From: an uncultured virus (IMG/VR IMGVR_UViG_2061766007_003026)
Lineage: Duplodnaviria > Heunggongvirae > Uroviricota > Caudoviricetes
Virus record (IMG/VR): IMGVR_UViG_2061766007_003026
Length of the DNA: 58,310 nt
Direction: 5' to 3' (one strand)
Shown: one piece after another, positions 2,296-57,690 of the stretch
Layout: every line of letters starts with the position of its first letter
Position numbering within the stretch: the stretch's first letter is position 1
The notes under the pieces: generated by a model
Told to the model about the DNA's origin: nothing
Seen by the model: only the letters and a program-made list of their open reading frames with translations
Database searches by the model: none
Program-made: the position numbers and the translations under genes

Positions 2296-2856
2296 TNNNN
2301 NNNNNNNNNNNNNNNNNNNNNNNNNNNNNNNNNNNNNNNNNNNNNNNNNNNNNNNNNNNNNNNNNNNNNNNNNNNNNNNNNNNNNNNNNNNNNNNNNNNN
2401 NNNNNNNNNNNNNNNNNNNNNNNNNNNNNNNNNNNNNNNNNNNNNNNNNNNNNNNNNNNNNNNNNNNNNNNNNNNNNNNNNNNNNNNNNNNNNNNNNNNN
2501 NNNNNNNNNNNNNNNNNNNNNNNNNNNNNNNNNNNNNNNNNNNNNNNNNNNNNNNNNNNNNNNNNNNNNNNNNNNNNNNNNNNNNNNNNNNNNNNNNNNN
2601 NNNNNNNNNNNNNNNNNNNNNNNNNNNNNNNNNNNNNNNNNNNNNNNNNNNNNNNNNNNNNNNNNNNNNNNNNNNNNNNNNNNNNNNNNNNNNNNNNNNN
2701 NNNNNNNNNNNNNNNNNNNNNNNNNNNNNNNNNNNNNNNNNNNNNNNNNNNNNNNNNNNNNNNNNNNNNNNNNGTGACCCACCGGGGAACCCCCGGAGAT
2801 ACCTAAGGATTACCCGGGAGGGAACATATAAACACAAGACGACAAGGAGAACAATA

Positions 2857-3954
2857 ATGACAAAGAAACCCCTTTCAGAAAAAATCACCAACCTTCCGGT
2901 GGAAACCCGAGACCGTAAAGCGGTCACTGTACCGAACCGCGCCGCAAAGCGCGCCGCAGCTAAGAACGGCAGCCTTCACAAGGCTAAGACCGCGAAGAAT
3001 GACGAGTTCTACACGAGGCTGGAGGATATTGAAGAAGAACTGAAAAACTACCGTAAATATTTCAAGGGCAAAATTGTCCTCTGCAATGCGGATGACCCGG
3101 AATGGAGCAACTTCTTCCGCTACTTCGCCATCAACTTCAGCTTCCTCGGTCTGAAGAAGCTCATCGCTACTCACTACGAGACGAACGGAAAGTCCTACGC
3201 ACTCGTCGTGGACTGCAACCTCGACGTGAATGGAGACGGCAAGATTGACCTCAAGGACGCCGTCCGCGTCGAACTTGAGGGCAACGGCGACTTCCGTAGC
3301 GAGGAATGCGTAAAGTTCCTCGATGAAGCTGATGTCGTGGTGACCAACATTCCGTTTTCCCTTGCCAGGGAATACTTGAAGGTCATGAAAGACAGTAAGA
3401 AAAAATTCCTTTTCCTCGGGAACCGCAACATGATTACCTACAAGGAATTTTTTGCGGAAATCAAGGCAAACCGCATGTGGCTCGGTGTAAGCCCGATGAG
3501 TTGCACCTGGTTTGAAGTTCCTCAACTTCCCGAATATAAAAAAGAAGGTAACCGTTTCAAGATTGAAAATGGAAAATGGTATCGTTCCCTCGGTAACGCC
3601 TGCTGGTTCACGAATATCCCACACTCGAAGCGCAACACCCCGCTCGACCTCGTAGGCAACGAGTACAGCCCGGAAAAATACCCGAAGTACGACAACTACG
3701 ATGTCATAGAGGTCTCGAAGGTCTCGGAAATCCCGGACGGCTACAATGGCGTCATGGCTGTTCCCATCACCTTCCTCGACAAGTACTGTCCTGACCAGTT
3801 CGAGATTGTCAGTTGCAATGACTACCGGGTCAATAATGCCATTCCAACTAAAGCACATGGCTTGATTAAAGATAAGGAAGGCACCATTAACGGAAAAGCC
3901 ACTTACGTGCGAATCTGCATCAAGGCGAAGCCCGCCAAGAAGGGCAAAAAATAA
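2857..3954 (+). CDS. adenine-specific DNA methyltransferase, EcoRI-methylase-like family
   Basis: AK..KNDEFYT, FKGKIVLCNADDPEWSNF, GNGDFRSEEC, VVTN(I)PFSL, CWFTN, YPKYDNYD..EV, GVMAVPITFLDKY motifs. Confidence 0.9.
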   Translation: MTKKPLSEKITNLPVETRDRKAVTVPNRAAKRAAAKNGSLHKAKTAKNDEFYTRLEDIEEELKNYRKYFKGKIVLCNADDPEWSNFFRYFAINFSFLGLKKLIATHYETNGKSYALVVDCNLDVNGDGKIDLKDAVRVELEGNGDFRSEECVKFLDEADVVVTNIPFSLAREYLKVMKDSKKKFLFLGNRNMITYKEFFAEIKANRMWLGVSPMSCTWFEVPQLPEYKKEGNRFKIENGKWYRSLGNACWFTNIPHSKRNTPLDLVGNEYSPEKYPKYDNYDVIEVSKVSEIPDGYNGVMAVPITFLDKYCPDQFEIVSCNDYRVNNAIPTKAHGLIKDKEGTINGKATYVRICIKAKPAKKGKK

Positions 3955-4204
3955 TCCAAAATTCTCCATCGTCTGACCCCCGGGTTATCCCGGGGGTTTC
4001 TTTTTTCTTTCGGATTCCACCTCGATGACCCCGGGCCCTCCCCGGTGGGTCACGTACTGTCCAGCCTTCCACGGTCGTCTCTCGACAACACACCCCTTCA
4101 GAACCCTGATGTCCGGTTATGCAACTCCTCCCGATATATTTGCATACCCACCGGGTACACCCCGGTGATACCGCAGCATTACCCATAAGGCAACGCAATC
4201 ATGT

Positions 4205-4576
4205 ATGAAGTGGCTACTGTTCATAAATGACCTAGTATGGCTGGCAACAGCAATCCGTTGTGCCACCTGTGAACACCTGGACGAACACCCGGTGCTCACC
4301 GGCATTATCATGGTCACTACGGTAATCTATGCAGTAGACCTGCTGACCAAGTTCCGCGCGCTGCACTGGAACCTCAAGGAAGGACTCCGCAGGTACTGGC
4401 TTGACATCCTGCTGCTGATTCCCTTCGTGAAGCTGTTCCGCGGGCTCCGCATCATCAAGGTGGGCCGACTACTGTGGATGGCAGACGCTGCGTGCGACTT
4501 CACCGAGATGCTCTACCGGGCAATCCACGCCATCCGCACGTGGCTCCACCGGGGAGGGCCCGGGGACACCCGGTAA
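4205..4576 (+). CDS. small membrane protein resembling an ion-channel voltage-sensor segment (S2-S4), no pore
   Basis: hydrophobic helices, then WLDILLLIPFVKLFRGLRIIKVGRLL with R/K every third residue; 3' end reads through element 4546. Confidence 0.6.
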   Translation: MKWLLFINDLVWLATAIRCATCEHLDEHPVLTGIIMVTTVIYAVDLLTKFRALHWNLKEGLRRYWLDILLLIPFVKLFRGLRIIKVGRLLWMADAACDFTEMLYRAIHAIRTWLHRGGPGDTR

Positions 4577-4618
4577 CTCCCGGGAAGGCAACCCGTACAT
4601 GCAAGGAGATTAACAAGT

Positions 4619-5263
4619 ATGAAAATCAACCCCTACAAGCTCACAATATCCGACTTGACCGGGCAATTCGAGGACAGCGTCCGCGGGGCATGGGTCATCC
4701 TCGTCTGCGGTATCAAGCTGATTATCCGTCCCGAATTCCAGCGGGAATTCGTATACTCCCTCGCCGACCAAGTCGCGGTCATCTTAACCATCTTGGAAGG
4801 CGCCCCGCTGAACTGCGTATACTTCAGTGTCAATACAGACGGTACCTTCGAGGTCATCGACGGGCAGCAACGAATCCTGTCCATACTTCACTTCATCGCA
4901 GGAGACTTCTCGGTGGAGTGGAACGGGGAGACCCTTTACTGGCACAACCTCCCGGCAGACCTCAAGGAGAAGGTGCTCTCCTACGACCTGCTCACCACGT
5001 ACACCTGCGAAGGCGGGGAAAGCGACAAGCTGAACTGGTTCCGTCGAATAAATACTGCGGGCGTCGAGTTAAATAACCAGGAGCTACTCAATGCAACCTA
5101 TCACGGTCCGTTCATCACCTCGGCACGAGAAATGTTTTCAAAACCGAACTGCCGCGCCGTCAAGGTGGCTTCCATGGAGGGAAAACCTTTGATGAAAGGC
5201 AGCCCTATTCGCCAAGACCTGCTCGAGCAAGTTTTGATTTGGGCCGCGGATGCGGAGACGTAA
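4619..5263 (+). CDS. DUF262 (GmrSD/ParB-like) domain protein, N-terminal part of a split DUF262-HNH nuclease
   Basis: IRPEFQREFVY, EVIDGQQRILS, WFRRINTAGVELNNQELLNA. Confidence 0.9.
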   Translation: MKINPYKLTISDLTGQFEDSVRGAWVILVCGIKLIIRPEFQREFVYSLADQVAVILTILEGAPLNCVYFSVNTDGTFEVIDGQQRILSILHFIAGDFSVEWNGETLYWHNLPADLKEKVLSYDLLTTYTCEGGESDKLNWFRRINTAGVELNNQELLNATYHGPFITSAREMFSKPNCRAVKVASMEGKPLMKGSPIRQDLLEQVLIWAADAET

Positions 5264-5341
5264 CCGCTACCTACCGGGTACACCCCGGAGACACCCAGGT
5301 ATACCCAGCAAGCCAAATGTTGAATGAAAGGAGACATGACC

Positions 5342-5815
5342 ATGAACAACATCGAATACATAGCCCAGCACCAGCATGACGCGAATGCCGATTCCCTGTG
5401 GGTATATTTTTCATCGGTTATGAGCTGGGTCAAGACAAAATTTAACAGCTACCGCAAGGAAATGGCTGGCGTCCCCTGGGGACTTCTCTACAATCGTTAC
5501 AAGCATGACACACGTACCCCCGAGGAAATCGAAAGCGAGGTGTCCCGCTTGATGCAAGATGAAGATGTCACTAACAAGAAAGGTATATACAGTTACATCT
5601 TCACCGGCGAGGAAAAGGAGCTGTCGATTCGCACCTTTACCGATGCACAAAAGCGTGAAGCCTATGAGCGCCAAGGAGGAACCTGTGCCTGCTGCGGTAA
5701 CAAGTTCCCTCTCGAGGGACTGCAAGCGCACCACGTAAAGCCGTGGCATTCCGGCGGGAAGACCATCCCGTCCAACTTGAAACTGCTATGCCCTACATGT
5801 CACCGAGACGTTTAA
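5342..5815 (+). CDS. HNH endonuclease, C-terminal part of the split DUF262-HNH nuclease
   Basis: CACC...AHHVKPWHSGGKT...NLKLLCPTCH; own AAGGAG RBS. Confidence 0.88.
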   Translation: MNNIEYIAQHQHDANADSLWVYFSSVMSWVKTKFNSYRKEMAGVPWGLLYNRYKHDTRTPEEIESEVSRLMQDEDVTNKKGIYSYIFTGEEKELSIRTFTDAQKREAYERQGGTCACCGNKFPLEGLQAHHVKPWHSGGKTIPSNLKLLCPTCHRDV

Positions 5816-5936
5816 CCTCCTGCCAGAGCCTCCCGGGAACCCCGGGAGGTTTCCTTCCATATAACCCACCGGGTACCNNNNNNNNNNGCTCAAGTCCGAG
5901 AACGGGCAGCTCGTATTCCAGTAGGAGGATAGCGGT

Positions 5937-6059
5937 ATGGGGAAGGGTTGCCTCTTCGGGATTGGGATAGGGATAGGGCTGCTGCTCGTCCCCGTCATTT
6001 TCAAGCTGCTGGTGGCGCTGTTCGCGCTGGTGGCTGTCGGAATCGCCTCGGTACTTTAA
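5937..6059 (+). CDS. 40-aa hydrophobic membrane peptide (partial allele at 1670)
   Basis: GGAGG RBS; MGKGCLFGIGIGIGLLLVPVIFKLLVALFALVAVGIASVL. Confidence 0.7.
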   Translation: MGKGCLFGIGIGIGLLLVPVIFKLLVALFALVAVGIASVL

Positions 6060-6070
6060 AGGAGACTATA

Positions 6071-6262
6071 ATGAAAAAATATTTTTTACGACTCGCCGCA
6101 ATTCTGCGCCATGCATTCATCGGGTACCAAATCATAGGTACCAACAAGAAAACCGGGAAACGGGAAGTAGTGTACTGCTATCCCGACTACGACAGCGCAA
6201 TGCTCGTGGGTTCCTTTGGCTGGAGGGGGCAGGAGCAATATACCGACCTTGAGATACGCTAG
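6071..6262 (+). CDS. hypothetical protein (63 aa)
   Basis: AAGGAG RBS before ATG 6071. Confidence 0.75.
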   Translation: MKKYFLRLAAILRHAFIGYQIIGTNKKTGKREVVYCYPDYDSAMLVGSFGWRGQEQYTDLEIR

Positions 6263-6462
6263 GAATTATTTTTGAAATTCAGGAGCCTCCCGGGAACCCG
6301 GGAGGTTTTCCTGTATTCCCGGCAGCCGCCAGTGCGTCTTCTGAGCTTCGCCGGCTCCTACCGTACGCCACCGGGTATTGCCCGGGGGTGGCCGGGGTGG
6401 AATCGGCAGGCAACAATGATGCGTAAGGAGTCACTTTTCACCACCAAAACGAGGAATAACCT

Positions 6463-6888
6463 ATGATTATGGATGTTGGCATTACCGTAGACCAGACCAG
6501 CGAACTGTACGCCAAAGTCAAGCGGCTTTGCGAAGGCATCGAAGTGAAGTTCGGCGAGGACTTCATCATCCCGTTCCCCATGCAGGAAGTGGATACCGGC
6601 GCAGGCAATTCCGAGTGCAACGCGCTGCGCTTCAGCGTGAACTACCGCAAGGGCGGGTACAGCTTCTACGACGGGCACAAGTATCCCTCCAGCTACTACC
6701 TCAATATCACTCCCATCGAACAGACCGAACACGGCTCCCGCTACGTGATGTTCGGTGGCGGCAACTGCACCATCGCGGAGTGCAACCGCAACACCCCGAA
6801 GCAACGCGGGATTGCCGCCAACGCCGTCCAGTCCGAACTTGTCGATATTGTCTACAAGAGCATTTGCCACTTCAAGATTACCCTCTAG
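6463..6888 (+). CDS. hypothetical protein (141 aa)
   Basis: GAGG RBS, element 6368, second allele at 2133. Confidence 0.85.
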   Translation: MIMDVGITVDQTSELYAKVKRLCEGIEVKFGEDFIIPFPMQEVDTGAGNSECNALRFSVNYRKGGYSFYDGHKYPSSYYLNITPIEQTEHGSRYVMFGGGNCTIAECNRNTPKQRGIAANAVQSELVDIVYKSICHFKITL

Positions 6889-7124
6889 CCGCATCACGGA
6901 CGTCATGTCTAGACTCCCCGGGATTTCCCGGGGATTTATTTTTTGAAATTCAGGAACCTCCCGGAAACCCGGGAGGTTTTCCTGTTTCCGACGACTGAGT
7001 CATCGAGATGACGGCCGCGGGCCTGGAGATATTCATGGCCCACCGGGGACACCCCGGAGATACCGGGGAAAACACCGGGAGGAAATACTGAAATAGATAC
7101 TAGATTTGAGCAAGGGAGATACCT

Positions 7125-9709: not shown

Positions 9710-9841
9710 TGCAACTACCATATCTCCTGCCAGTGCCTCCCGGGAACCCCGGGAGGTTTCCTTCCATATAACCCACCGGGTACCTCCCGGGGAGAACCAA
9801 GGATTACCCGGCAGGCAACTTACCGATACAAGGAGACAATT

Positions 9842-10844
9842 ATGTCAACTTTCAACGCAGACAAGACCCTTTCCAAGACCAAGCCCGAAACCATCCTCAA
9901 GTGGGCAATCAAGAAACTCCGTGCCAACTGCAAGACGGCGCAGGCAAACGAAGTCGTGTACGAGAGCAAGCTGAACGACGAGGACTTCAAGCGTACCCTC
10001 GGCAAGCGTGAACTGAAGAAGCTCGAGACCGGGAAGGCGACCCTCGCTGAACTCCGCAAGGCCAAGCTCGACGCCGAGCTCGCATCCTACGCGGAGGAGA
10101 CCGAGAAGGCCATCCAGAACCTCACCGCCGCGTTCTCCAAGGAACTCCCGGCCGTCATCGACATCTCGGTGGACTGGAAGAAGCACCGCGTGTGGGGCTA
10201 CAACCCCAAGGCCGAAGTCTGGGCTAACGGGTATACCGCGTCTGACTATGTAGGCGGTTGCGGCTACGACAAGGAATCCACAGCGACAGCCGAGGCGTTC
10301 AAGCAAAANNNNNNNNNNGCCCGGGGAGACCCAAGGATTACCCGGCAGGGAACTTACCGATACAAGGAGGCATCATGACAACTTTCAACGCAGACAAGAC
10401 CCTTTCCAAGACCAAGCCCGAAACTATCCTCAAGTGGGCAATCAAGAAACTCCGTGCCAACTGCAAGACGGCGCANNNNNNNNNNGGCACCGCGTATGGG
10501 GCTACAACCCCAAGGCCGAAGTCTGGGCCAACGGGTATACCGCGTCTGACTATGTAGGCGGCTGCGGCTACGACAAGGAATCCACAGCGACAGCCGAGGC
10601 GTTCAAGCAAAATATTGTTTTTGCCCGTATCGTCGCCACCTGCGCATGGCTCGACATGAAGGAAACCAAGGCTACCGGGAAACCTACCCACACCTACGGG
10701 TACACCGACGGCTACGACGGCTTCCGCTTCGAGGGCGCCGTGGGCTTCAGGTGCCACCAGAGAATCATCGAAAGGGCTGGCTACAGCACTGCTGCCGAAT
10801 TCCACCCGAAATCTTCCGACTGCTACAAGTTCGAGAAGAAATAA
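9842..10844 (+). CDS. hypothetical protein present as overlapping haplotype fragments across two gaps (one gene of ~230 aa)
   Basis: 9842-10307, 10375-10475 and 10488-10844 overlap in sequence with SNPs. Confidence 0.75.
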
Positions 10845-11031
10845 TTTTGTTCTGACCTCCAAACGCCTCCCGGGAATCCCCGGGAGGTTTTCTTTTTTTA
10901 CACAGGGCCTCCTGAAGCTTCGTCGTCAAATCTGAGATGCGCCCTGAAGGCTATAGCCCCCACCGGGTACCGCCCGGGGAGACCCAAGGATTACCCGGCA
11001 GGCAATTTCATACTACAAGGAGACTAAACCT

Positions 11032-11772
11032 ATGGCTACTTTGAAAAGAAAAGACCTTGACACGATTATCCGTAATCATCAGCACTGGATAAAACAGGAC
11101 CGCAAGGGCTGGGAAACTATGAAGGCCAACCTGTACGAGGCCGACCTGTCCGGGGCCAATCTGACCGGGGCCAATCTGCCCCAGGCAACCCTGACCGGAG
11201 CCAACCTGACCGGGGCCGACTTGCGCAAAGCCGACCTGTTCAGGGCCCACCTGTTATTGGTCGAACTGCGCAAAGCTGACCTGTCCGGAGCCAACCTGTC
11301 CGGGGCAAACCTGCGCGAAGCCGACCTGTCCGAGGCCAATCTGTCCGGGGCAACCCTGACCGGAGCCAACCTGTACGAGGCCGACCTTACCGGGGCAAAC
11401 CTGCACGAGACCAACATGGAATATGCGGACATCTACACCACCTCCTTCGACGAGAAGGAAGCCATCCGCAAGGGTATCATCCTTGCCAAGCCAATCAAGG
11501 GCTACAAGAAAACCGCGGAAGGGGTAATCATCACCGCCGAAATCCCGGCAGGAGCCATTGTTTTTTCTATAAATGGGGGAAAATGTAGAACCAGTATGGC
11601 TACAATCCTTGATACAGCAGGGCATAAGTTGCTTCATTCGATATATGACTCGGGATTTACTTACAAACTGGGCAAAAAAATTATAATCCCCAATTTTGAT
11701 ATTCGCTATAACGTAGAGTGCGGTCCAGGCTTCCACTTCTTCCGCACGAAGAAGGAGGCGGAGGAATACTAG
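11032..11772 (+). CDS. pentapeptide-repeat protein with DUF5758-like C-terminus
   Basis: A(D/N)LSG repeats; C-terminal GYKK...KCR...ECGPGFHFF; variant allele fragment at 11909-12019. Confidence 0.9.
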   Translation: MATLKRKDLDTIIRNHQHWIKQDRKGWETMKANLYEADLSGANLTGANLPQATLTGANLTGADLRKADLFRAHLLLVELRKADLSGANLSGANLREADLSEANLSGATLTGANLYEADLTGANLHETNMEYADIYTTSFDEKEAIRKGIILAKPIKGYKKTAEGVIITAEIPAGAIVFSINGGKCRTSMATILDTAGHKLLHSIYDSGFTYKLGKKIIIPNFDIRYNVECGPGFHFFRTKKEAEEY

Positions 11773-12347
11773 CTCACCGGGTATTCCCCGGGGACACCCA
11801 AGGAATACCCGGCAGGCAACTTACCGATACAAGGAGACAACCATGGCTAGCAAGAAAACCTCCCGGGGGTTCCCGGGAGGTTTCTTTTTTGCACAGGGNN
11901 NNNNNNNNTCTGACCGGAGTCAACCTGTCCGGGGCCAATCTGACCGGGGCCAATCTGTCCTGGGCCAAGCTGACCGGGGCCAATCTGACCGGGGCCAATC
12001 TGCCCCAGGCAACCCTGACNNNNNNNNNNACTCCTGAAGCTTCGTCGCCAGAGAGACTGGTGGGCGCCGGTAACGTATACACCCCACCGGGTACCTCCCG
12101 GGGATACCACGATATACCACTCAAGCCAACCAGGTCGCATCAATCTAAGGATAAGGGGACAATATGGCTAAGGAAGTATACAAGCGTTTGGAATGGCGTG
12201 TAAAACGCNNNNNNNNNNCCTCCTGAAGCTTCGTCGCCAGAGATACCTGCGGGCGCCGGTAACGTATACACCCCACCGGGTACCTCCCGGGGAGACCACG
12301 ATATACCACTCGAGCCAACCAGGTCACATCAATCTAAGGGGAACAAT

Positions 12348-12671: not shown

Positions 12672-12836
12672 GATATACCGACGCCTCCCGGGAACCCCCG
12701 GGAGGTTTCCTTTTTCCTGAAGCTTCAGTCCAGCGGCTGCCAGCCTCGGCCGGGAACATTCCGTTGCCCACCGGGGAACCCCCGGGGACACCCAAGGAAT
12801 ACCCGGCAGGGAACTTACAGATACAAGGAGACAATT

Positions 12837-13259: not shown

Positions 13260-13421
13260 CATGGAAACCTCCCGGGAACCCCCGGGAGGTTTCTTTTTTC
13301 CTGAAGCTTCAGTCCAGCGGCGGCCAGCCTCGGCCGGGAACATTCCGTTGCCCACCGGGTACATCCCGGCGAGACCCAAGGATTACCCGGTAGGCAACTT
13401 GCCGATACAAGGAGACATAAC

Positions 13422-14572: not shown

Positions 14573-14881
14573 ATGAGCAATTCTACGACATTCGCGTGCT
14601 TGCAGGTCACCAAGGTCAACGTGTACCCGTTCAAGCCGGACACCACTCTCGGACACCTGAAGGGTATCGCCACGGTGACCCTGAACGACCAGCTCGTCCT
14701 CAGGGGCCTGCGCATCATGGAAGGGGATAACGGCATGTTCGTATCCTACCCGACCGACCCGTTCTACAAGGGCGACGACTTCCGTAACATGGTGGAACCC
14801 AATACTGAGCTCCGCGAGCACATCGAAAAGTGCGTCCTGGAGATGTACAACTACACTACGAAGGAGGATGAAAATGGCTGA
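14573..14881 (+). CDS. spoVG: SpoVG-family nucleic-acid-binding protein
   Basis: LKGIATVTLNDQLVLRGLRIMEGDNGMFVSYP...ELREHIEKCVLEMY. Confidence 0.88.
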   Translation: MSNSTTFACLQVTKVNVYPFKPDTTLGHLKGIATVTLNDQLVLRGLRIMEGDNGMFVSYPTDPFYKGDDFRNMVEPNTELREHIEKCVLEMYNYTTKEDENG

Positions 14882-17357: not shown

Positions 17358-17546
17358 AAATTTTTATATTGTCTCCAGGCCTCCCGGGATTTCCCGGGAG
17401 GTTTTCCTTTTTTGCACCCGGCCTCCTGAAGCTTCCGACTCGTGCAGACCAGGTGCCTCCTGACATCATCATGCACCCCACCGGGTACCGCCCGGGGATA
17501 CCCGGGAATCACCCGGCAGGGAACCCTTACCCACAAGGAGACAAAT

Positions 17547-17927
17547 ATGCAGAAACTTATCACCAAGCCCATCATCGAAGCCCTCGCCAAGACCCCCTAC
17601 GCCTCTACCGACGGTGTGGAAAGGGATTCCAAGAAGGTAATCGCCAAGTTCTTCAACCCCATGGGCCCGGGCCGCTGGTACGTACTGGAGGACTCCATGT
17701 TCTTCACCGACCCGGAACACAAGGACGGCGACCACGTCGATGAGGACAAGATTGTGTTCGGCGCCGCGTCGCTGGGCTACGGGCTCGAACTGGGGGACAT
17801 CTCCCTCAAGGAGCTCGAGGACATCAGGCTGCCGCTGGGGATGCGTATCGAGCGAGACATCTCCGTCGAGCCGTTCGAGTACACCCTCGGCGAGCTGCGC
17901 CGCCGCGACGGAGAGGAGTGGATGTAA
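17547..17927 (+). CDS. DUF2958-like protein
   Basis: AKFFNPMGPGRWYVLE...FGAASLGYGLELGDISLKELEDIRLPLGMRIERD. Confidence 0.8.
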   Translation: MQKLITKPIIEALAKTPYASTDGVERDSKKVIAKFFNPMGPGRWYVLEDSMFFTDPEHKDGDHVDEDKIVFGAASLGYGLELGDISLKELEDIRLPLGMRIERDISVEPFEYTLGELRRRDGEEWM

Positions 17928-26790: not shown

Positions 26791-26899
26791 CCCGCCGGAA
26801 CATCCCGGGAACCCCGCCTTCCTCCCAGGGCCCCTGGGTTACTATATGCCCCACCGGGTACCACCCGGGGACACCCGAACCTCCCAGGGACCCCGCCGG

Positions 26900-27345
26900 A
26901 TTCTCCTAGGTGCTCCCATGTGCACTACAGGACACTCCCGGTTCCTCCCAGGTGCTCCCATGTGCAGTATATGGATGGCATGGCCACCCCGGATGCTCCC
27001 GGATGTTCCGGCGGGGTCTCCGGCGGGGTCTCCGGGAGGTTCCGGGAGGTTCCGGGAAGGGTCAGGGGAAGGTACGGGAGAGTACGGGAGAGTACGGGAG
27101 GAAACGGAGGGGAATCCGGCAGGAAACTTACAAAAATGTAAGTTTTGTGTAAATTTCTGGTTACGTTCATGTCCATAATGGATAAAAGTGGCGTTTTTGG
27201 GTCAAAAACGGCAATTTCACCTCTCGTTGAACGCGAATTTGACCTCCCGTTTCCTCCCATTTCCTCCCACGTTCCCCCCATCCTCCCCACTGCCTCCCGC
27301 GCGGTCTAAAAAATTGTGGAATACTGCACTTTAGTACAGTACCCC
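26900..27345. other. putative replication origin (or genome-end junction)
   Basis: non-coding; 10-bp-phased GGGAG repeats on the left and CCTCCC repeats on the right of an AT-rich core with palindromes; C-to-G skew switch. Confidence 0.55.
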
Positions 27346-27620
27346 GACCGTTTCCCCTGCGGGGTCTGCAAGTCGGTGCCCTAGCGCCATTTTTCTGTAG
27401 TGACCCTACCGGGGAGCCGGGGAACTTTCCGGGGGAATCCGGCGGTGGAGCCCATGGTGCAATCGGGGGGTGGGTGCGTGGTGGACGGCCCTGCCGGGGA
27501 ATCCTTCGGGTCTTTCCTGGTGGAAACCACCGGGTATCTCCCGGGGACACTCCGGGATTCTCCGGGAGGGAACGGGGGTATGTAAGAATTTAACATTTTC
27601 CGGGAAGGAGGACGAATAGG

Positions 27621-30147: not shown

Positions 30148-31251
30148 ATGATTGACAAGATTTTGCGCAAAGTGTTCAAGGGGGACAAGCCCGTCAAGGT
30201 TTCCGCCAAGGAACTCGCGGTCATACTGGAAAACCACAGGCACTGGCTCGCCAAGGACTGCGAGGGCTGGAAGAACATGAGGGCGGACCTCGAAGGCAAG
30301 GACCTTTCCGGGCTCGACCTTACCGGGGCCGACTTCCGCAAGGCCCGTCTAAGGCTGGTGGACTTTGTCGGGGCGAAGATGGCCGGGGTGAAGCTCTCCG
30401 GTGCCGAACTTTGGTACTCCGACCTCACCGGGGCCGACCTCACCGGGGCCGACCTCAGCCGTACCGACGTGGAGAACGCCGACTTTTCCGGGGCGAACCT
30501 CACGGGGGTGAACTTCAACAAGGCCAAGGGATGCGAGGCGGCCCTGTCCGGGGCCGACCTCACCGGAGCGAAACTGACCGGCACGAACTTCAGCATGGCC
30601 GACTTCTCCGGGGCGAAGTGCGTCAAGACGAATTTCAAGGACGCGTACATCCGTGATGCAATCTTCGCGAAGGCAACCTTCGCCGGCGCAATCTTCGACA
30701 ACACGTATGTCGCCGAGGGCGACTTTTCCGGCGCGATGCTCGACAAGGTGGACTTTTCCGCCCTGCGCGATTCCTCGCGGGTAAATTTTTCAAATGCCAG
30801 TCTCCGCGAGGCGAACCTCCGCGCCAGTCTCGGCGAGGCGAAGTTCAACGGGGCGAACCTTTCCGGGGCCGACTTCTCCGGCGCATGGCTCAACGGTGCC
30901 AACTTCGCCAGGGCCGACCTGACCGGGGCGAAATTCTCCAAGGCAGACCTCGAGGACGCCAAGTTCGGCAAGGCAATCCTTGACGGGGCCGACTTCTCCG
31001 GGGCCGAAATGAAGGGGACGAGCATCAACGAGAAGCAACTCGCAAAGACCGCTTCCCCCAAGAAGGCGAAGGTGATGCCCAAGACCAAGGAAACCTTCAC
31101 GGTGACGGTGACGTACACCACCACCATCGAAGCCATCGGGGCCACCCCGGAAGAGCGCAAGGCGTCTGCCGAACGCCAGGCATGGGGAAACCTCGTGGGC
31201 AAGCTGGACGCGGACAATGTTGTCACCAAGGCCGTTTCCACGGGAAAATAA
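30148..31251 (+). CDS. pentapeptide-repeat protein with extra C-terminal small domain
   Basis: long A(D/N)(L/F)SG repeat run; N-terminus similar to the 11032 protein. Confidence 0.9.
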   Translation: MIDKILRKVFKGDKPVKVSAKELAVILENHRHWLAKDCEGWKNMRADLEGKDLSGLDLTGADFRKARLRLVDFVGAKMAGVKLSGAELWYSDLTGADLTGADLSRTDVENADFSGANLTGVNFNKAKGCEAALSGADLTGAKLTGTNFSMADFSGAKCVKTNFKDAYIRDAIFAKATFAGAIFDNTYVAEGDFSGAMLDKVDFSALRDSSRVNFSNASLREANLRASLGEAKFNGANLSGADFSGAWLNGANFARADLTGAKFSKADLEDAKFGKAILDGADFSGAEMKGTSINEKQLAKTASPKKAKVMPKTKETFTVTVTYTTTIEAIGATPEERKASAERQAWGNLVGKLDADNVVTKAVSTGK

Positions 31252-36550: not shown

Positions 36551-37741
36551 ATGACCTACATCGAACTCATGAACGGCGCTTTCGGCGGGAGCCTCCCGGA
36601 ATTCCCGGGAGACAACTGCGCCTCGCGTATCGACTCTTTCTTCGCCGCTAACGGCGTGGGCGTCAAGGTCGTGGACATGGAACACGGCCCGGTGGTCACC
36701 AAGTACATCGTGGATTTCGGTAGCGATACCGACCACGTGTCGAAAGTGGAGAACCTCCGCAGGGACCTCGGAATCCGTCTCGGTGTCGGCGCTTCCCGCG
36801 TCTACATCGGCGAAACCGAATGGAATGGGCAGGTGAAGCTCGCAATCGAGGTGCCGAACAGGAATCGTATCGCGGTTCCCTCCGGCACGGTAATCCCTGC
36901 AGTGAAGCGTGGCCAGGAATGGCGCGGACTGCGCGTGTGCCTCGGGGTGGACACCTCGGGCAAGCCCTACACAATCGACCTCCACAAGGCCCCGCACGTG
37001 CTCGTGGCAGGCCAGAGCGGAAGCGGCAAGTCCGTGTTCCTCAACTCGATGATTTGCGGCCTCCTCGCGAACTACAGCCCCTCGGAATGCCACATCGACG
37101 TGGTCGACCCGAAGGGTACGGAATTCAACGCATTCTGCCGTTGGCCGGCAATGCTCGACTCCGTCGACGTGCATCACGCCGACGATGCGGTTCCTCTGCT
37201 CGGCGAGCTCGTGGACAGCATGAAGTCCCGCATGGAAGAATTCGGCAAGTACGGCGTGTGCAACCTCCCCGAATACGGTGCGCTGTGCGACGAACGCGGA
37301 GTGGAATGGGGCTTCCCGTACAGGGTGGTCATCATCGACGAGTTCTACGACATGATGATGAACTACGGTTCCGCTTTCGAGGACCCGCTCTCCATTCTCG
37401 CCGCCAAGGCCAGGAGCTGCGGCATCCACCTCGTCCTTGCGACGCAGCGCCCCTCCGCGGACGTCATCCGCGGTGCGCTCAAGGCGAACCTTTCCACGCG
37501 CATCGCGCTGAAAGTCTCCTCCCGCACGGATTCCCAGGTCATCATCGACCGTCCGGGCGCGGAATCCCTCTGCGGTCGCGGCGACATGCTCTACTGCGGT
37601 CCGGATGGGGACATTCCCCTCCGCCTCCACGGCTGCATGTTGACTAAGGACGAACTCGAGGAACTCCACAGACGCGCCGTCAGCGTGGAATACATCGACG
37701 GGTTCCGCGGTACCGACGAGGTTTCGGTCGCCGCGGGGTAA
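36551..37741 (+). CDS. ftsK: FtsK/SpoIIIE-family ATPase (motor domain only)
   Basis: GPVVTKY, IEVPN, PHVLVAGQSGSGKS, DPKGTE, VVIIDEF, GIHLVLATQRPS, GAESLCGRGDML. Confidence 0.92.
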   Translation: MTYIELMNGAFGGSLPEFPGDNCASRIDSFFAANGVGVKVVDMEHGPVVTKYIVDFGSDTDHVSKVENLRRDLGIRLGVGASRVYIGETEWNGQVKLAIEVPNRNRIAVPSGTVIPAVKRGQEWRGLRVCLGVDTSGKPYTIDLHKAPHVLVAGQSGSGKSVFLNSMICGLLANYSPSECHIDVVDPKGTEFNAFCRWPAMLDSVDVHHADDAVPLLGELVDSMKSRMEEFGKYGVCNLPEYGALCDERGVEWGFPYRVVIIDEFYDMMMNYGSAFEDPLSILAAKARSCGIHLVLATQRPSADVIRGALKANLSTRIALKVSSRTDSQVIIDRPGAESLCGRGDMLYCGPDGDIPLRLHGCMLTKDELEELHRRAVSVEYIDGFRGTDEVSVAAG

Positions 37742-37797
37742 CCCGAAAGGCAGGAATTTAAATTTTAAATTTTGATTTTTCCTATACGGAGGACATC

Positions 37798-38397
37798 ATG
37801 ACTAACGAAGATAAAACCGCTTACATGGCGACACTGCTCGGGTCCAAGACTCTCGCGAACACGGCTATCAGCTACCTCTCGCGTTGCAGGGATATCCCGA
37901 CGTCCGCCCAGGTGGCCGAGCACCTCAAGGTGCCCGCCCGCACGGCCGGAAAGATTGTCGCCGCGGCCAAGATGTCGCAGTGCTTCCTGATGGACACCAT
38001 GCCGCTCAAGCTCGCCAACTCCAACGTGGTTGGCTGGTACCTGGCCGACCTCAAGGCCGAGCCGACCGAGGTCCTAATCGTTCTGACCCTCGGCTCCGAC
38101 AACTCCCTCATCGCTCGCCACCAGTGCGCGATGGGACCCCTCAGCAACGTGGTCGTGGACGAGGCCGCGGTGTACCGCTACGCCCTCGCCGACGGTGCCA
38201 AGGGAATCATCGTCGCCCACAACCACCCGAGCGGAGTTCTCGAGTTCAGCCAGGCCGACGTTGACTTCACGAAGAAGCTCATCGCTGCCGGAAAGATGCT
38301 CCATATCGCCATGCTTGACAGCATCCTCGTGACCCGCCGCGGAGTGATGAGCATGCGTAAAGTCAAGGAGGACATATTCATACAGAACGGTAAATAA
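37798..38397 (+). CDS. radC: RadC-like JAB/MPN domain protein
   Basis: IIVAHNHPSG...SQAD..FT..L..AG..L.I.MLD. Confidence 0.88.
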   Translation: MTNEDKTAYMATLLGSKTLANTAISYLSRCRDIPTSAQVAEHLKVPARTAGKIVAAAKMSQCFLMDTMPLKLANSNVVGWYLADLKAEPTEVLIVLTLGSDNSLIARHQCAMGPLSNVVVDEAAVYRYALADGAKGIIVAHNHPSGVLEFSQADVDFTKKLIAAGKMLHIAMLDSILVTRRGVMSMRKVKEDIFIQNGK

Positions 38398-38540
38398 CTT
38401 TTTACCTAAAATGTTACGAAAATGCTACTTCGACCCCGGAATTTATTTTATATTTAACGTACCCTTTTACAGGCAAACTAACAAACTTTTAATCAGAACA
38501 ACGAACCACCGCACCGCGGATTAACCCAAGGAAGAACATC

Positions 38541-39311
38541 ATGGAACTGGCAAGCGACAACTTCAAGGACAACGTAAGGAAGGCCTACACCCGGGCATGC
38601 AGCATCATCACCTCTCCCGAAGTCGAGAACATGCTCATCCTCAAGGCCAAGAAGGGCAACAAGTACGCCCGTAATATCCTTTTCGAAAAGCAGCTCCCGG
38701 CCCTCATCAAGCTGGCTAGCAGGAACAACTACGCCGTGTTCAAGGGCAATGCCGCCGAGCTCGTTTCCGAGGTGTTCGACGTGTTCGAGAACGCCATCTC
38801 CCTCTACAACCCATCCATGGGTCTCAGGTTCTGGACGTTCCTTAGCAAGCACGCCATGAACGCCATGAACAAGGCCAAGTACGAGGACCGCCTTATCCAC
38901 GTTCCCGAGAACTACGTGAAGCAGGGCAGGGCCAACGAATACGCCGCCATCGAATCCGGCTACCTCCCCATCGCTGCCGACGACAGCCACTGCCTCTTCG
39001 ATACTCTCGAGGGAGACTCCGCCGACACGGTCATCGACGAGAGCGCCATGAAGGAATACCGCGGAATCACGAACCGCATCATGGACGGCCTCGACTCCCC
39101 CGAACGCGAGCTCGTGAAGAAGTGCTACCTCGAGACTGAACCGGATGCCGACGGGAATCCCGGCAACAAGCCCTGGTCCATCACCAGCCTCGCCAAGTTC
39201 AGCGGCACCAGCAAGGAGTACCTCCGCCAGAAGCACAAACACGCGCTGGCCAAGCTCCGCAAGAACATTGAAGCCGACTGCGACTGGGTGCTCGACCCGG
39301 CTCTCGCATGA
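38541..39311 (+). CDS. sigma-70-family RNA polymerase sigma factor
   Basis: E..LI..AKKG...ARN.L (region 1.2/2.1), YNPSMGLRFWTF (2.3), RLIHVP, and region-4 HTH ITSLAKFSGTSKEYLRQ...ALAKLRK. Confidence 0.85.
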   Translation: MELASDNFKDNVRKAYTRACSIITSPEVENMLILKAKKGNKYARNILFEKQLPALIKLASRNNYAVFKGNAAELVSEVFDVFENAISLYNPSMGLRFWTFLSKHAMNAMNKAKYEDRLIHVPENYVKQGRANEYAAIESGYLPIAADDSHCLFDTLEGDSADTVIDESAMKEYRGITNRIMDGLDSPERELVKKCYLETEPDADGNPGNKPWSITSLAKFSGTSKEYLRQKHKHALAKLRKNIEADCDWVLDPALA

Positions 39312-46227: not shown

Positions 46228-46596
46228 TTAAATGATTTTGATACGCGTGATTGTCCCTCGGAATACCGTGCCGTCCTCCCGGGACATGGTGAGGTCGACG
46301 CTGCCGCGCGCGACCTGCCTGGGTTCGGTCTTCGCCAGTTCGGTGTCGTTTCCGACGAACTTGGCCTTGGCGATGTTCAGGTCGTCCATCGCATCGCGCT
46401 TGACCTTGTAGTATGACCTCGTGATGCTGCAGCTCCCGCCTTCCTCTTCCCGTATTTCCAGGAAGTAGGCATCCTTCTGGTTCTTGATGGCGGCAAGGAG
46501 TCCGTTGAGACGGACGACCTCCTTCTTGAGGTCGTCAACCTCCTTCTTGAGGTCGTCCTTGACGAAATCCCGTCCCTTCATGGAAGTCCTGGCCAT
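46228..46596 (-). CDS. hypothetical coiled-coil protein
   Basis: DDLKKEV repeat; TAATG coupling. Confidence 0.75.
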   Translation of the reverse strand: MARTSMKGRDFVKDDLKKEVDDLKKEVVRLNGLLAAIKNQKDAYFLEIREEEGGSCSITRSYYKVKRDAMDDLNIAKAKFVGNDTELAKTEPRQVARGSVDLTMSREDGTVFRGTITRIKII

Positions 46597-47558
46597 TATG
46601 CGGCAATCCTGTTGAATTCTCGGTCGAACTCGGGATGCACGGTCCTCACGTTCGGATGTGCGATGATGTCGACCACCTCGTTGAGCGCCTTGCGGCTGTG
46701 CTGCGCGATGCCGCCGAGAAGGATGGACTGCGCCTTGTTGGCGGAGTTCCTAGTGTCATGCTGGAACGTGCCCTGGATTGCATTGTACAGGTTCCATGCG
46801 GTGAACGTCTCGACGTGCCCATTGTCGGACGAGTGGAAACGGTTCACCATACCGGTGAGCATATCCTCCCAGTGGGCATTCGGTTCCCCACCATCCGCTT
46901 CGTTTTCCTTGAACGGAAGACACCTGGCCATAACCTCGCGGACGTGGTCCATATTGACCTTGAAGTCGGCCATCCTGGAGTAGACTTCCTGGGTATGCTG
47001 GAACACGCCGTTCACCACGCGGACTGTCTCGGCGGCAATCTTGAGTCGACTCACGGCAAGCGAGTTGTGGCGGACGGAGAAGATGTTGTTCTCCTCGGCG
47101 CTCTTGATTGCCGGTGAAATCTGGTTCATGCAGAAGAAACGCAGCGGGGTGATTAGGATGCTGCAGCCCCTGCTGCCGTCATGGGAGTTGACAATGGAGA
47201 GATAGCGGCCTACCCTGTCGTCATTGCCGCCTACCGTAAGGTCGTCTCCGATTGAAATCTGCGCGTACACGCCGGCCCCGTTGCCCCAGCTGCCGACGTT
47301 CTTGAACTGCACGTCGCTCACCTGGCTGATGTCGCTGATAATCTTGAACGCATCCCTGTTCTGGATGGGATGGTACGCCTTCGTGAAGGTATGTTCGGAA
47401 ATGATTGTGCCGTTGTCGCTCCTGACCGGCGTCATCATCTTGGTCTTGTGGTATTCGCCGTCCTCACCGAGGAACGACACCGGACGCATCACCGCGTCGA
47501 AATCGAGATTCGCTTCCCTGAGTGCCGTCATGGCGGCATCGTAATTACCCTGTGGCAT
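46596..47558 (-). CDS. DUF932-family phage/plasmid protein
   Basis: YHPIQNRDAF, YLSIVNSHDGS, TPLRFFCMNQ, RH, TAWNLYNAI. Confidence 0.88.
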   Translation of the reverse strand: MPQGNYDAAMTALREANLDFDAVMRPVSFLGEDGEYHKTKMMTPVRSDNGTIISEHTFTKAYHPIQNRDAFKIISDISQVSDVQFKNVGSWGNGAGVYAQISIGDDLTVGGNDDRVGRYLSIVNSHDGSRGCSILITPLRFFCMNQISPAIKSAEENNIFSVRHNSLAVSRLKIAAETVRVVNGVFQHTQEVYSRMADFKVNMDHVREVMARCLPFKENEADGGEPNAHWEDMLTGMVNRFHSSDNGHVETFTAWNLYNAIQGTFQHDTRNSANKAQSILLGGIAQHSRKALNEVVDIIAHPNVRTVHPEFDREFNRIAA

Positions 47559-50669: not shown

Positions 50670-51902
50670 CTATCCCGGTGTTTCCGCCACCAGTTTATAG
50701 AGGATTTCCCGGTCGATTTCCTTCCCGGACAGCATCATGCGGTATGCCTTCCGGCGTATCTCACGAAGCCTGTCACCGAACTCCCTCCCGGGCGCCATAC
50801 CGGTATCGGCAAGGGCGGCGCTGATGTCCCCCTGCGATGGGTAACGGGCCATGAACGAGCGGAACTTCTCCTCCTCGGCTGGCTTCAGCACGAAATACCC
50901 CTGCCTGGATATGGAATACGCCCTCAGGGCGTCCCACCGGGCGTCGCACACTCCGTCCACTATGTCCACCAGGTCGAGGCCGCCGGCCATGTACTGCTTG
51001 AACCGGGAGGCAACGAACTTCATGGTGGAAATCTCGTCACAGCTGCACTTGAAGTCGCGCATCTGCTTCTCCGAGTCGAATACAAGTGCCAGGGCGAATT
51101 CGGGCTTCCACCCGTTGTACATGCCGAAAATCTCTAGCCGTGCCAGCATCGGAGTGAGCTCTCCCCACTCGACTGCCGGGTCGACGTACTTGCCCACCCC
51201 TTCGGCCAGGTATCCGATGAACCGGCCGAATGCCGTCAGCCCGTATGCGGCGGTCTTGGTGAATTCGTCGTGGAGACGTTCCCTCGATAGGCACGATACC
51301 CTGTTCCCCATGGCCAGGCATGCCGCCCGAGTCACCGGATGGATGTCCATGTTGAACCTGGCGGCAAACCGGTAGGCCCGTATCACACGGAGGGCATCCT
51401 CCCCGAACCTTTCGAGTGGGTCACCAACGGTGGAAAGCATGCCAGTACGGATTGCCTCAACTCCGCCATGGAAATCTATCACCTCCAGCGACGAGGATAG
51501 ACCCATCGCATTCATGGTGAAATCCCTGCGGCGGCAGTCCTCCTCGAACGTCTCGGCCCACTGCACAGCGTCAGGATGCCTCCCGTCGCTGTATGACCCG
51601 TCAGCACGGTACTGGGTTACCTCGAACGGCATTCCGTCGTGAAATACCAATAGAGTGCCGTGCGCCTCGCCGTTGTTGCTCTCGCACCGGAACTTTTCGC
51701 GCAGTTCGGCCATCGGCATGTTTGTCGCTATGTCGACGTCATGTATACCCGGCTCCGTATCAAGACCCAGTTGCCACCGCACCAGGTCCCTCACGCACCC
51801 GCCGGCAAGAACTGCAGTATATCCAAATCCTTCAATCGCCTTCACCAGGCCTATCCCGCTAGATACCAGCGGTATATCCAATGCACCATCAATATTCATC
51901 AA
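50670..51902 (-). CDS. cca: tRNA nucleotidyltransferase (CCA-adding enzyme / poly(A) polymerase family)
   Basis: GGCVRD, DVDIAT, RRDFTMNAM, EDALRVIRAYRFAAR, SRERL..E. Confidence 0.9.
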   Translation of the reverse strand: MMNIDGALDIPLVSSGIGLVKAIEGFGYTAVLAGGCVRDLVRWQLGLDTEPGIHDVDIATNMPMAELREKFRCESNNGEAHGTLLVFHDGMPFEVTQYRADGSYSDGRHPDAVQWAETFEEDCRRRDFTMNAMGLSSSLEVIDFHGGVEAIRTGMLSTVGDPLERFGEDALRVIRAYRFAARFNMDIHPVTRAACLAMGNRVSCLSRERLHDEFTKTAAYGLTAFGRFIGYLAEGVGKYVDPAVEWGELTPMLARLEIFGMYNGWKPEFALALVFDSEKQMRDFKCSCDEISTMKFVASRFKQYMAGGLDLVDIVDGVCDARWDALRAYSISRQGYFVLKPAEEEKFRSFMARYPSQGDISAALADTGMAPGREFGDRLREIRRKAYRMMLSGKEIDREILYKLVAETPG

Positions 51903-56389: not shown

Positions 56390-56476
56390 CCCCGAATGGT
56401 GTAAAATAGGTAGCCACGCTGGATTTAGGATTCAGTTGCCATTACGGCAGTCAAAGTTCGAGTCTTTGTTCGGGGA
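56390..56476 (+). tRNA. tRNA-Leu(TAG)
   Basis: CCCCGAA/TTCGGGG acceptor, CTGGA-TTTAGGA-TTCAG anticodon arm, long variable arm, GTTCGAGTC. Confidence 0.85.
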
Positions 56477-56486
56477 CTAAACATAC

Positions 56487-56568
56487 ACCGGCGTCGCCTA
56501 AATGGATATGGCAACGGACTTCTAATCCGTCGGGGAACCCCATGCCAGTTCGAGTCTGGCCGTCGGTA
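56487..56568 (+). tRNA. tRNA-Arg(TCT) with long variable arm
   Basis: ACCGGCG/CGTCGGT acceptor, ACGGA-CTTCTAA-TCCGT, GCCAG-TTCGAGT-CTGGC. Confidence 0.85.
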
Positions 56569-56573
56569 CTAAC

Positions 56574-57023
56574 ATGAGGTTTTCTATGAGACGTCTTTTT
56601 ATTATCCGCAAGGACCTGAATTTGAGTAAGGGCAAGCTGGCCGCAATGGTGGCTCATTGTGCCGAAGCATTCTGGACTAGGTTGATATCCCGAAATGCAA
56701 TCATGGAAGATGGCGTATATGCAGTCAAGTTCAACCTGCCGGCATCTACTATGGATGAATACGTACGCGGACTGTTTGTCAAGACCATATGCGAGGCGAA
56801 GAACCTCGCTCACCTTATGAAGGTGGAACCGCTGGCAAACGAGTTCGGCCTTGTCAAGGATGTCGACTACGGATTCATCGACGACGCTTGTCTTACCGAG
56901 CTTACCCCGGAGGCTACTGACGAGAATGGCAACGGGTACTGCCGGGTCGGCATATGGTTCCGCCCGTTGCCGGACGAGTTGAGTCACCGGTTGAGCAAGA
57001 AGTATCAATTGTATAAGGAATAA
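56574..57023 (+). CDS. peptidyl-tRNA hydrolase, PTH2 family
   Basis: IIRKDLNLSKGKLAAMVAH...IDDACLTEL. Confidence 0.85.
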   Translation: MRFSMRRLFIIRKDLNLSKGKLAAMVAHCAEAFWTRLISRNAIMEDGVYAVKFNLPASTMDEYVRGLFVKTICEAKNLAHLMKVEPLANEFGLVKDVDYGFIDDACLTELTPEATDENGNGYCRVGIWFRPLPDELSHRLSKKYQLYKE

Positions 57024-57047
57024 ACGCCAAACACAGGGAGAAACAAC

Positions 57048-57224
57048 ATGAGCATGGTATCGCACCTGAACAAGGAATACATGACGACGAACTGTCCCGC
57101 CTGCGGACACGAGATAGATGTCTGCGAGGCCGACCTGAACGGCACAATGGACGACGGCACCAAGGAATACGAGTGTAGTTGCCCGGAGTGTGGCCAGGGA
57201 TTCTACAGTTCAGAAGTATATTAA
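57048..57224 (+). CDS. 58-aa zinc-ribbon protein (not in ORF track)
   Basis: GGGAG RBS; CPACG...CPECG. Confidence 0.75.
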   Translation: MSMVSHLNKEYMTTNCPACGHEIDVCEADLNGTMDDGTKEYECSCPECGQGFYSSEVY

Positions 57225-57226
57225 AT

Positions 57227-57301
57227 GCACACGTGCCGAAGCTGGTTAACGGAGCAGTCTGCAAAACTCGCTATTCGGGGGTTCAAATCCCTCCGTGTGC
57301 T
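57227..57301 (+). tRNA. tRNA-Cys(GCA)
   Basis: GCACACG/CGTGTGC acceptor, CTGCAAA loop, U73 discriminator. Confidence 0.85.
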
Positions 57302-57324
57302 CTAAAAAGTCATCCGGACGGATT

Positions 57325-57401
57325 TTTGCTATATTTGTAGTCCTGCCAGGCATCCCCCGGTTCTTCCGGGTTGCCGCCGGGGCAGAAATTTGCTATATTT
57401 G
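57325..57401 (+). promoter_or_regulatory. tandem TTTGCTATATTTG promoters (57325-57337, 57389-57401)
   Basis: same 13-mer as the - strand promoters, upstream of tRNA-Met. Confidence 0.7.
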
Positions 57402-57612: not shown

Positions 57613-57690
57613 CGCGGGGTGGAGCAGTTGGTTAGCTCGCCAGGCCCATAACCTGGAGGCCGCAGCGTTCAAGTCCTGCCCCCGCTACCA
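57613..57690 (+). tRNA. tRNA-Met(CAT), initiator-like
   Basis: CGCGGGGTGGAGCAG start, C1:U72 mismatch, CCAGG-CCCATAA-CCTGG, encoded CCA. Confidence 0.88.

Follow-up and report, generated by a model that had tools for sequence, protein, structure and literature searches.

A DUF262-HNH nuclease gene in two pieces: probable old fission at an inter-domain linker that carries a gene-start repeat

The stretch of DNA analysed here (the window) comprises the 58,310 nucleotides (nt) of an uncultured virus record (IMG/VR IMGVR_UViG_2061766007_003026; Caudoviricetes), and judging from its sequence it carries a restriction-modification-type module composed of an EcoRI-like adenine methylase and a DUF262-HNH nuclease. 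The nuclease, a single chain in most of its relatives, is here encoded by two open reading frames (ORFs) separated by a short repeat that also precedes many other genes of the same DNA. According to an original prediction, made from the letters of the window, an element had entered the coding region and the two halves work as a split protein, or the interruption is removed at the DNA or RNA level. The genes and features of the locus are listed below, with ribosome-binding site abbreviated to RBS and amino acids to aa.

2857 to 3954, + strand: EcoRI-like N6-adenine DNA methyltransferase, the partner gene of the nuclease (Pfam PF13651, PADLOC MTase_II PDLC03297)
3975 to 4008, + strand: intrinsic terminator-like hairpin and T-run 3' of the methylase gene (10-pair stem, 8 of them GC, at 3975-3998, then TCTTTTTTCT)
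4146 to 4204, + strand: gene-start repeat copy before the small ORF, with a weak RBS (exact 16-mer core 4150-4165; family D3)
4205 to 4576, + strand: small hydrophobic ORF of 123 aa between methylase and nuclease, function unknown
4544 to 4618, + strand: gene-start repeat copy before the nuclease N-half (family D2; core at 4548, 71 nt before ATG 4619)
4619 to 5263, + strand: nuclease N-half, with the DUF262/GmrSD_N domain (ParB/Srx-like NTPase fold), its DGQQR motif and the first helices of the middle region (PF03235, PADLOC)
5264 to 5341, + strand: the junction, a full gene-start repeat copy of 78 nt (core 5273-5288, RBS AAAGGAGA at 5327-5334)
5342 to 5815, + strand: nuclease C-half, with a helical region and the HNH (His-Me finger) nuclease domain (PF01844 at residues 115-155, PADLOC)
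5829 to 5858, + strand: terminator-type hairpin CCTCCCGGG..CCCGGGAGG followed by TTTCCTTCC, 3' of the C-half (by inspection; same family as D7)

The methylase matches PF13651 over profile positions 2-345 of 345 (E 9e-114) and the PADLOC profile MTase_II PDLC03297 (E 9e-103). In the N-half Pfam recognises PF03235 GmrSD_N (E 3.3e-19) and in the C-half PF01844 HNH (E 1.2e-12; matches to PF01844/PF14279 HNH), and no DUF1524 domain was found in the C-half with Pfam. Against the PADLOC profile REase_II PDLC03418, which has 372 positions, the N-half aligns with positions 28-210 (E 8.8e-53) and the C-half with positions 218-362 (E 2.2e-47), and a match to the whole profile needs both ORFs together; 'REase_II', 'MTase_II' and 'Type II' are annotations of the PADLOC library, that is, names and not functional assignments. 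The DGQQR motif is invariant in both alignments that contain N-half sequences (A1 and A2), as are H131, N145, C115, C118 and C150 in the C-half alignment of 13 sequences (A3), while the last position of the HNH motif reads CH in the window and CN in most relatives. NCBIfam returned nothing for the N-half or the methylase and sub-threshold HNH-domain matches only for the C-half, and a search of solved structures by sequence gave none for the N-half and distant HNH domains only for the C-half. On these likenesses the protein is a putative nuclease, with a presumed relation of its activity to methylation.

The N-half has 214 aa, ends in ...LIWAADAET and stops at TAA 5261-5263, and the C-half, of 157 aa, opens at ATG 5342 with MNNIEYIAQHQHDANADSLW... 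/ MNNIEYIAQHQHD... and ends at 5815. Both ORFs lie in the same frame, with two in-frame stops between them (TAA 5261 and TGA 5321). ATG 5342, and not ATG 5324, is the likely start of the C-half, because it has the usual RBS spacing and lies 69 nt from the repeat core, within the modal spacing of 67-71 nt found for the repeat. The succession of ORF end, repeat, RBS and new ORF is thus as the original prediction had described it. The terminator scan found one terminator after the methylase gene and none between the nuclease halves, which may therefore be co-transcribed. The scan missed the hairpin at 5829-5858, which has a weak T-run.

In the family at large the two parts form one chain. Loci with both parts numbered 100 among those fetched; in 96 of these the parts are read as a single open frame, and the other four are a degraded locus (L016) and three split metagenome loci (L021, L022 and L023). 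Of the 96 fused loci, 93 have a gene for an EcoRI-like methylase upstream of the nuclease, and so do the window and L021-L023. The N-half matches 1047 proteins in the longer length class (E <= 0.001), and the best 120 of these measure 376-391 aa and nearly all contain both Pfam domains. Searches of phage records with tblastn placed both halves in one ORF frame in MT835503.1 (at 1720-2325 and 2341-2811) and within gp08 of Flavobacterium phage vB_FspS_laban6-1, directly after the PF13651 methylase gp07. The original prediction took the stretch 'IRQD.LE..L.W....IE.YMA.HQHD.NA..LW.YF' to be a single polypeptide in this family, and this is borne out by the tblastn matches, by the 96 loci and by the consensus of 50 fused relatives, GSPIRQDYLETALxWIxDxxxxxYMAxHQHDxNANxLWxYF. 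Its statement that almost no coding sequence has been lost also agrees with the alignment, since the split proteins of the window have 11 residues from the conserved A to HQHD, as does the fused P0002, and the two halves match adjacent, non-overlapping parts of the same full-length proteins. Viral contigs with a homologue of the N-half amounted to 17 loci, with 46% as the best identity and all of the fused type or distant, and searching viral contigs with the fused P0004 and P0001 gave no close relatives.

The division is shared with a small set of relatives. The nine best relatives of the N-half, taken as protein clusters, are 59-67% identical to it by BLASTP, measure 215-221 aa, contain PF03235 only, and all stop within a few residues of the stop in the window. 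In L021, L022 and L023 the methylase, N-half, spacer and C-half follow in this order, with spacers of 84, 84 and 50 nt, respectively, compared to 78 nt in the window, and in all four loci the C-half starts exactly nine residues before HQH[DK]. A stand-alone C-half 97% identical to that of the window (P0241) is present in the protein collection. Other short members of the family end at scattered positions (residues 229-365 of P0001) and, from their sequences, look like truncations. The C-half search yielded 185 proteins in the 'near' length class, and most of the short ones start at an internal conserved Met (MA.HQHD, M[VI]Y.C or MKG..WG); as candidates for further split forms they were rejected and read as fragments, often on contigs of about 1 kb. 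A separate observation concerns the many HNH proteins of 154 aa that begin at the conserved Met of YMA.HQHD (P0256, P0263-P0267, P0309 and P0322), some on contigs of 18-88 kb. They could be fragments produced by gene calling, or else represent another kind of truncated or split protein found outside these lineages.

The split thus appears, on sequence comparison, to be neither unique nor recent, and to be common to a few related rumen mobile elements. This qualifies the view of an element inserted into the gene: the gene is indeed split where relatives have a single chain, and a private, recent event does not agree with nine clusters and three loci that share the site. Homologues divided at this site do exist, which goes part of the way towards the condition under which the original prediction would fall, and none was found to be divided without an element. 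An element would by this account have entered the gene; a stop mutation followed by recruitment of a repeat could also have produced the arrangement.

In order to characterize the spacer, its sequence was compared with the rest of the window. The 16-mer core ACCGGGTACACCCCGG, present in exact form in the junction at 5273-5288, occurs 55 times with <=3 mismatches, 51 times on the + strand and 4 times on the - strand, whereas 100 shuffles gave 1.0 on average and never more than 4. The exact pattern ACCGGG-N5-CCCGG is found 46 times on the + strand and 4 times on the - strand, all within approximately the first 36 kb of the window. A full copy of about 75 nt consists of a yRTAmCCC box, three to four CCNGG blocks about 11 nt apart and ending in GGnAAC, a variable stretch, AAGGAGA and the ATG. 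The core lies 25-135 nt upstream of 32 of the 48 + strand ORFs with a strong RBS (starts before 36.6 kb). Full-length comparison of the junction copy with 38 others gave identities of 60-72% for 33 of them, the best (72%) being the copy before gene 13422. The stop codon of the N-half sits 9 nt ahead of the junction core, and an upstream stop codon within 15 nt of the core is seen in 12 of 43 copies, the junction included, with a TAA or TAG triplet at position -6 in 11 of the 43. The junction of L022 carries instead that locus's own repeat GGAATCACGGG, of which there are 10 copies in L022, all on the + strand, and zero in the window; the junction of each split locus is accordingly of the repeat type of its own lineage. 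The exact core, the canonical spacing, the full-length match and the lineage-matched repeat types make the spacer, as far as can be judged from these comparisons, the mobile element's ordinary gene-start signal, changing in step with the rest of the genome.

The repeat would act as a promoter/operator or as an mRNA leader. No sigma-70-like site was found on the + strand in 3900-6100. A candidate partner for the repeat is the gene at 38541-39308, whose sigma-like match stays under the curated cut-off. A search of IMG/VR for the repeat pattern returned one stretch only, and hence no relatives. Its sub-types vary along the window (...CCAAGGATTACCCGGCAGGCAAC at 9.7-13.4 kb and ...CTCCGGGAGGGAACGGGGG at 27.5-30 kb), and related loci have quite different repeats in the same layout. 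Contigs from other samples agree with the window until the 3' border of a repeat is reached (4609), or only from the terminator/repeat at 5817 onwards, and outside these limits run into unrelated sequence, as expected with gene swapping at repeats.

The nature of the spacer also bears on the second outcome allowed by the original prediction, removal of the interruption at the DNA or RNA level, and on related routes to a single polypeptide; those considered were an intron-like RNA, excision of DNA, stop-codon read-through and ribosomal hopping. The halves share a frame in the window, L021 and L022, and in L022 a single stop lies between them, as such a process could use; in L023, however, they are in different frames, the spacer varies from 50 to 84 nt between loci, and the window has two in-frame stops to be passed. 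Rfam recognised only tRNAs in the window and no RNA family at the junction, and the predicted fold of the junction RNA is no more stable than those of shuffled sequences (z -0.81). Among the contigs, none links 5263 directly to 5342, with the limit that contigs cannot exclude rare forms. Moreover, the spacer offers a strong RBS, followed by an ATG at the customary distance, and inspection of the junctions revealed no matching take-off and landing codons. Removal or bypass is therefore considered hardly credible. An intein was rejected as a candidate since a spacer of 78 nt is too short for one.

An AlphaFold model of the fused relative P0001, built with an alignment of 50 sequences (predicted local distance difference test score, pLDDT, 90.4; predicted template modelling score, pTM, 0.78), places the split in a loop between helices (212-221), which is the internal block of lowest confidence (65) and a site of insertions and length variation in the alignment. 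The model suggests that the fission most likely took place at a flexible inter-domain linker, between the DUF262 part and a helical-HNH part. With Foldseek the best match of the model is BrxU (PDB 7P9K, E 2.3e-4), followed by HNH and ParB domains. As both domain types exist independently, and as each half has a gene-start repeat of its own, the halves might have been kept for separate roles, for example one as an independent HNH nuclease and the other as an independent ParB-like NTPase or DNA-binding protein. Such a separation is rather unlikely. The halves are adjacent, in the same order and beside the methylase in all four lineages with visible context, the C-half keeps a helical region of about 95 residues that in the single-chain model is one continuous part, and the conservation of residues matches that of the fused family.

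The reading preferred here, to which we assign a probability of about 0.7, is an old and selected gene fission at the flexible linker that has given rise to a two-subunit restriction enzyme. The products of 214 and 157 aa would most likely assemble non-covalently into an equivalent of the single chain of about 360-390 aa. In this scheme the inter-domain linker of an ancestral single-chain nuclease gene would have gained a copy of the repeat together with a stop and a restart, the repeat placing the N-half stop 9 nt before its core and providing, at its 3' side, the RBS and start of the C-half. The fission would date from the ancestor shared by a few related mobile elements of the rumen and have been kept by selection since then, the junction repeat changing in step with the other repeats of each lineage. 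The two products would associate and rebuild the enzyme, and the methylase would protect the element's own DNA. A split protein, the first of the two outcomes proposed from the letters of the window, is supported because both halves are intact and conserved and have their own translation signals; its second outcome, removal at the DNA or RNA level, is not.

Several points weigh against this fission, and they concern the reach of the comparisons, the junction, the substitution rates and the phylogeny. For six of the nine split N-half clusters the adjoining C-half is assumed, as their genomic context was not part of the comparison, and the locus comparison excludes the six closest fused relatives (P0001-P0006). 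In the junction copy of the repeat the third and fourth CCNGG blocks are degenerate. The ratios of non-synonymous to synonymous substitution rates (dN/dS) themselves speak for constraint on both halves, being 0.13-0.29 for the N-half and 0.11-0.37 for the C-half (three pairs with computable dS), comparable to the 0.17-0.33 of the methylase. The dS values, however, are saturated (1.8-2.4) for most pairs that include the window and not computable for the C-half of the window, and L021 versus L022, the sole unsaturated pair, has few changes and 103 codons for the C-half. Finally, in the phylogeny the split forms and P0001-P0006 make up one clade (100/98) with unresolved internal forks, the best tree needs four state changes, 0% of bootstrap trees have a single change, and forcing a single origin costs 8.9 log-likelihood units. 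By the approximately unbiased (AU) test, grouping the split forms in one clade is not rejected (p 0.18), and one old fission is favoured because the C-half starts at the identical residue in three lineages.

The four state changes, and the interleaving of the fused P0001-P0006 with the split groups, could alternatively reflect a repeat that is a mobile stop-restart cassette, inserted recurrently in the same linker of what would still be a two-subunit enzyme. The repeat type specific to each junction, the repeat copies that abut an upstream stop or have TAA/TAG at -6, and the divergence of contigs at the repeat borders 4609 and 5817 are in line with such insertions. The AU result and the shared start residue argue against them, as do the unresolved internal branches of the tree, and no target-site duplication or transposase was seen; recurrent insertion is accordingly judged unlikely. 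If true, it would mean that this family of rumen mobile elements actively breaks multi-domain genes into separately controlled pieces.

Another possibility is that the gene has been inactivated and is decaying, or that the junction is an assembly artefact at the repeat. The scaffold that makes up the window is interrupted by 19 runs of N and contains near-duplicate segments, and the relative L016 is degraded. On the other hand, 2774-5877 contains no N, and an independent assembly of the likely source sample gave a contig of 2762 nt that is identical over 4100-5857. Two other studies cover the boundaries of the junction, one with a contig about 92% identical over 5046-5354 (the end of the N-half and the repeat) and the other with a contig over 5303-5496 (the repeat and the start of the C-half). 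Both ORFs are intact in four lineages whose proteins differ by 35-45%: the frames are open, the DGQQR motif and HNH residues are kept, and dN/dS, subject to the saturation noted above, is 0.11-0.37. The claim in the original prediction that both halves are intact with their own translation signals therefore holds, neither half appears to be decaying, and decay or artefact is very improbable. The sequencing runs that contain the sequence are labelled as bovine gut, gut or faeces metagenomes, and no RNA runs are listed among the 19 such runs.

The near-duplicate segments are 94-98% identical and lie next to runs of 10 N (1657-2258 and 5924-6588; 9839-10308 and 10372-10612; 12019-12150 and 12208-12339), which suggests that variants from different strains were placed next to each other in the scaffold. 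Two of these copies enclose the methylase-nuclease block (2774-5877), whose contig depth is below that of the repeat-bearing neighbours (23 compared to 29-41); the block may for this reason be present in only part of the population.

Compared to the single-chain DUF262-HNH nuclease and EcoRI-like methylase of vB_FspS_laban6-1 (gp07/gp08), the module of the window has the same families, gene order and collinear sequence. The single-chain form, an ORF of about 360-390 aa, in most cases follows the methylase immediately (median 47 nt between matches), whereas in the window the nuclease takes up two cistrons and is separated from the methylase by a terminator, a small ORF and two copies of the repeat. 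Type IIT heterodimeric restriction enzymes (BbvCI, BslI) have two different subunits from adjacent genes, each catalytic or paralogous; the genes of the window resemble them in encoding subunits side by side, but are the N- and C-parts of one ancestral chain. The adjoining methyltransferase is a feature of Type II restriction-modification, and is present in the window as in 93 of the 96 fused loci. A DUF262 (ParB/Srx-like, DGQQR) N-domain followed by a His-Me finger nuclease, as in the window, is in turn found in GmrS/GmrD, in the GmrSD Type IV enzymes and in BrxU, the resemblance to BrxU being one of architecture only. In contrast to GmrSD, the window has a PF01844 HNH domain in place of DUF1524, and its family has the methylase as a near-constant neighbour. 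A modification-dependent enzyme fits poorly because a cognate-looking methylase adjoins, and the HNH domain, found rather than DUF1524, and the partner methylase place the split nuclease, on sequence grounds, outside the strict GmrSD family. In that family both separate GmrS/GmrD proteins and fusions occur, and fusions predominate (available text of PMC4619093 and PMC12707154). Some of the separate pairs, including the founding case of E. coli CT596, may reflect errors of sequencing or annotation (available text of PMC4619093), whereas the split in the window is backed by independent assemblies and by conservation.

Enzyme genes divided by DNA of mobile elements have precedents, and the T4 topoisomerase genes 39/60 are a gene in pieces through mobile DNA. 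In Aeh1 the nrdA gene is split by a homing-endonuclease gene, and the pieces yield a working enzyme (available text of PMC3045599). The insert in these cases carries a homing endonuclease gene, in contrast to the 50-84 nt of non-coding repeat, of the kind that precedes most genes, seen here. The PeSLs of T4-type phages are short promoter/stem-loop units, repeated between genes, that border small variable genes and mediate modular shuffling (available text of PMC2839356 and PMC4122927). The repeat of the window is similar in preceding 32 of 48 genes and in that contigs from other samples diverge at its borders. It differs by including the RBS and CCNGG blocks about 11 nt apart, and is likened to PeSLs by its layout, with no sequence relation expected. 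Gene splitting by PeSLs is not reported in the available text of PMC2839356. In the literature on restriction by DUF262-HNH and EcoRI-like methylase proteins, no description of the methylase/DUF262-HNH pair or of a split form was found. What is new is the combination, a short regulatory repeat at the domain linker of a restriction nuclease that is conserved across lineages.

The remaining content of the window relates mostly to the surroundings of the module. The final codons of the small ORF between methylase and nuclease are encoded by the next repeat copy; the protein has no Pfam or PADLOC match, a homologue (58.6% identity) occupies the equivalent position in L023, and a counterpart is absent from L021 and L022. 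Hairpins of the type CCTCCCGGG-N-CCCGGGAGG with a T-run form a second repeat family found 3' of many genes, and have a CCCGGG core in common with the gene-start repeat. At 26853-27530, between two copies of the gene-start repeat, about 680 nt are without a convincing ORF and contain the short tandem units GGGAGGTTCC and GTACGGGAGA. Two pentapeptide-repeat proteins (PF00805) are encoded at 11032-11772 and 30148-31251, the first of which also matches DUF5758 and is encoded by a 15-nt tandem repeat (11110-11448). SpoVG, DUF2958, FtsK/SpoIIIE-like ATPase, RadC, sigma-70-like (below cut-off), DUF932 and CCA-adding/poly(A) polymerase-like proteins are also represented, and a cluster of five tRNAs (Leu-TAG, Arg-TCT, Cys, Met and Arg-CCG) occupies 56390-58310, a sixth being cut by the end of the window. 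No virion genes were recognised among 53 ORFs compared to PHROGs or 51 compared to Pfam. The gene content hints at a large plasmid, a conjugative element or a phage.

3975-3998, 5829-5858, 6917-6990, 10869-10905, 12687-12720, 13271-13305 and 17383-17420: terminator-type hairpins
14573-14881, 17547-17927, 36551-39308, 46596-47558 and 50670-51566: regions that hold the set of genes from SpoVG to the CCA-adding/poly(A) polymerase-like protein

The locus would represent a natural, evolution-tested case of a DUF262-HNH nuclease that tolerates a cut at the linker, at about residue 213 of about 375, and a well-documented split form in a family where the split of GmrS/GmrD in E. coli CT596 has been attributed to error (available text of PMC4619093). 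It would thereby offer a handle for experiments on domain function and on split enzymes, in a family without a solved close relative. As a speculation, a nuclease in two pieces combined with a methylase in one piece could make restriction set in later than protection upon entry of the element into a new cell. More generally, the locus suggests that gene borders can be set, down to the level of protein domains, by a regulatory repeat that a mobile element carries throughout its genome.

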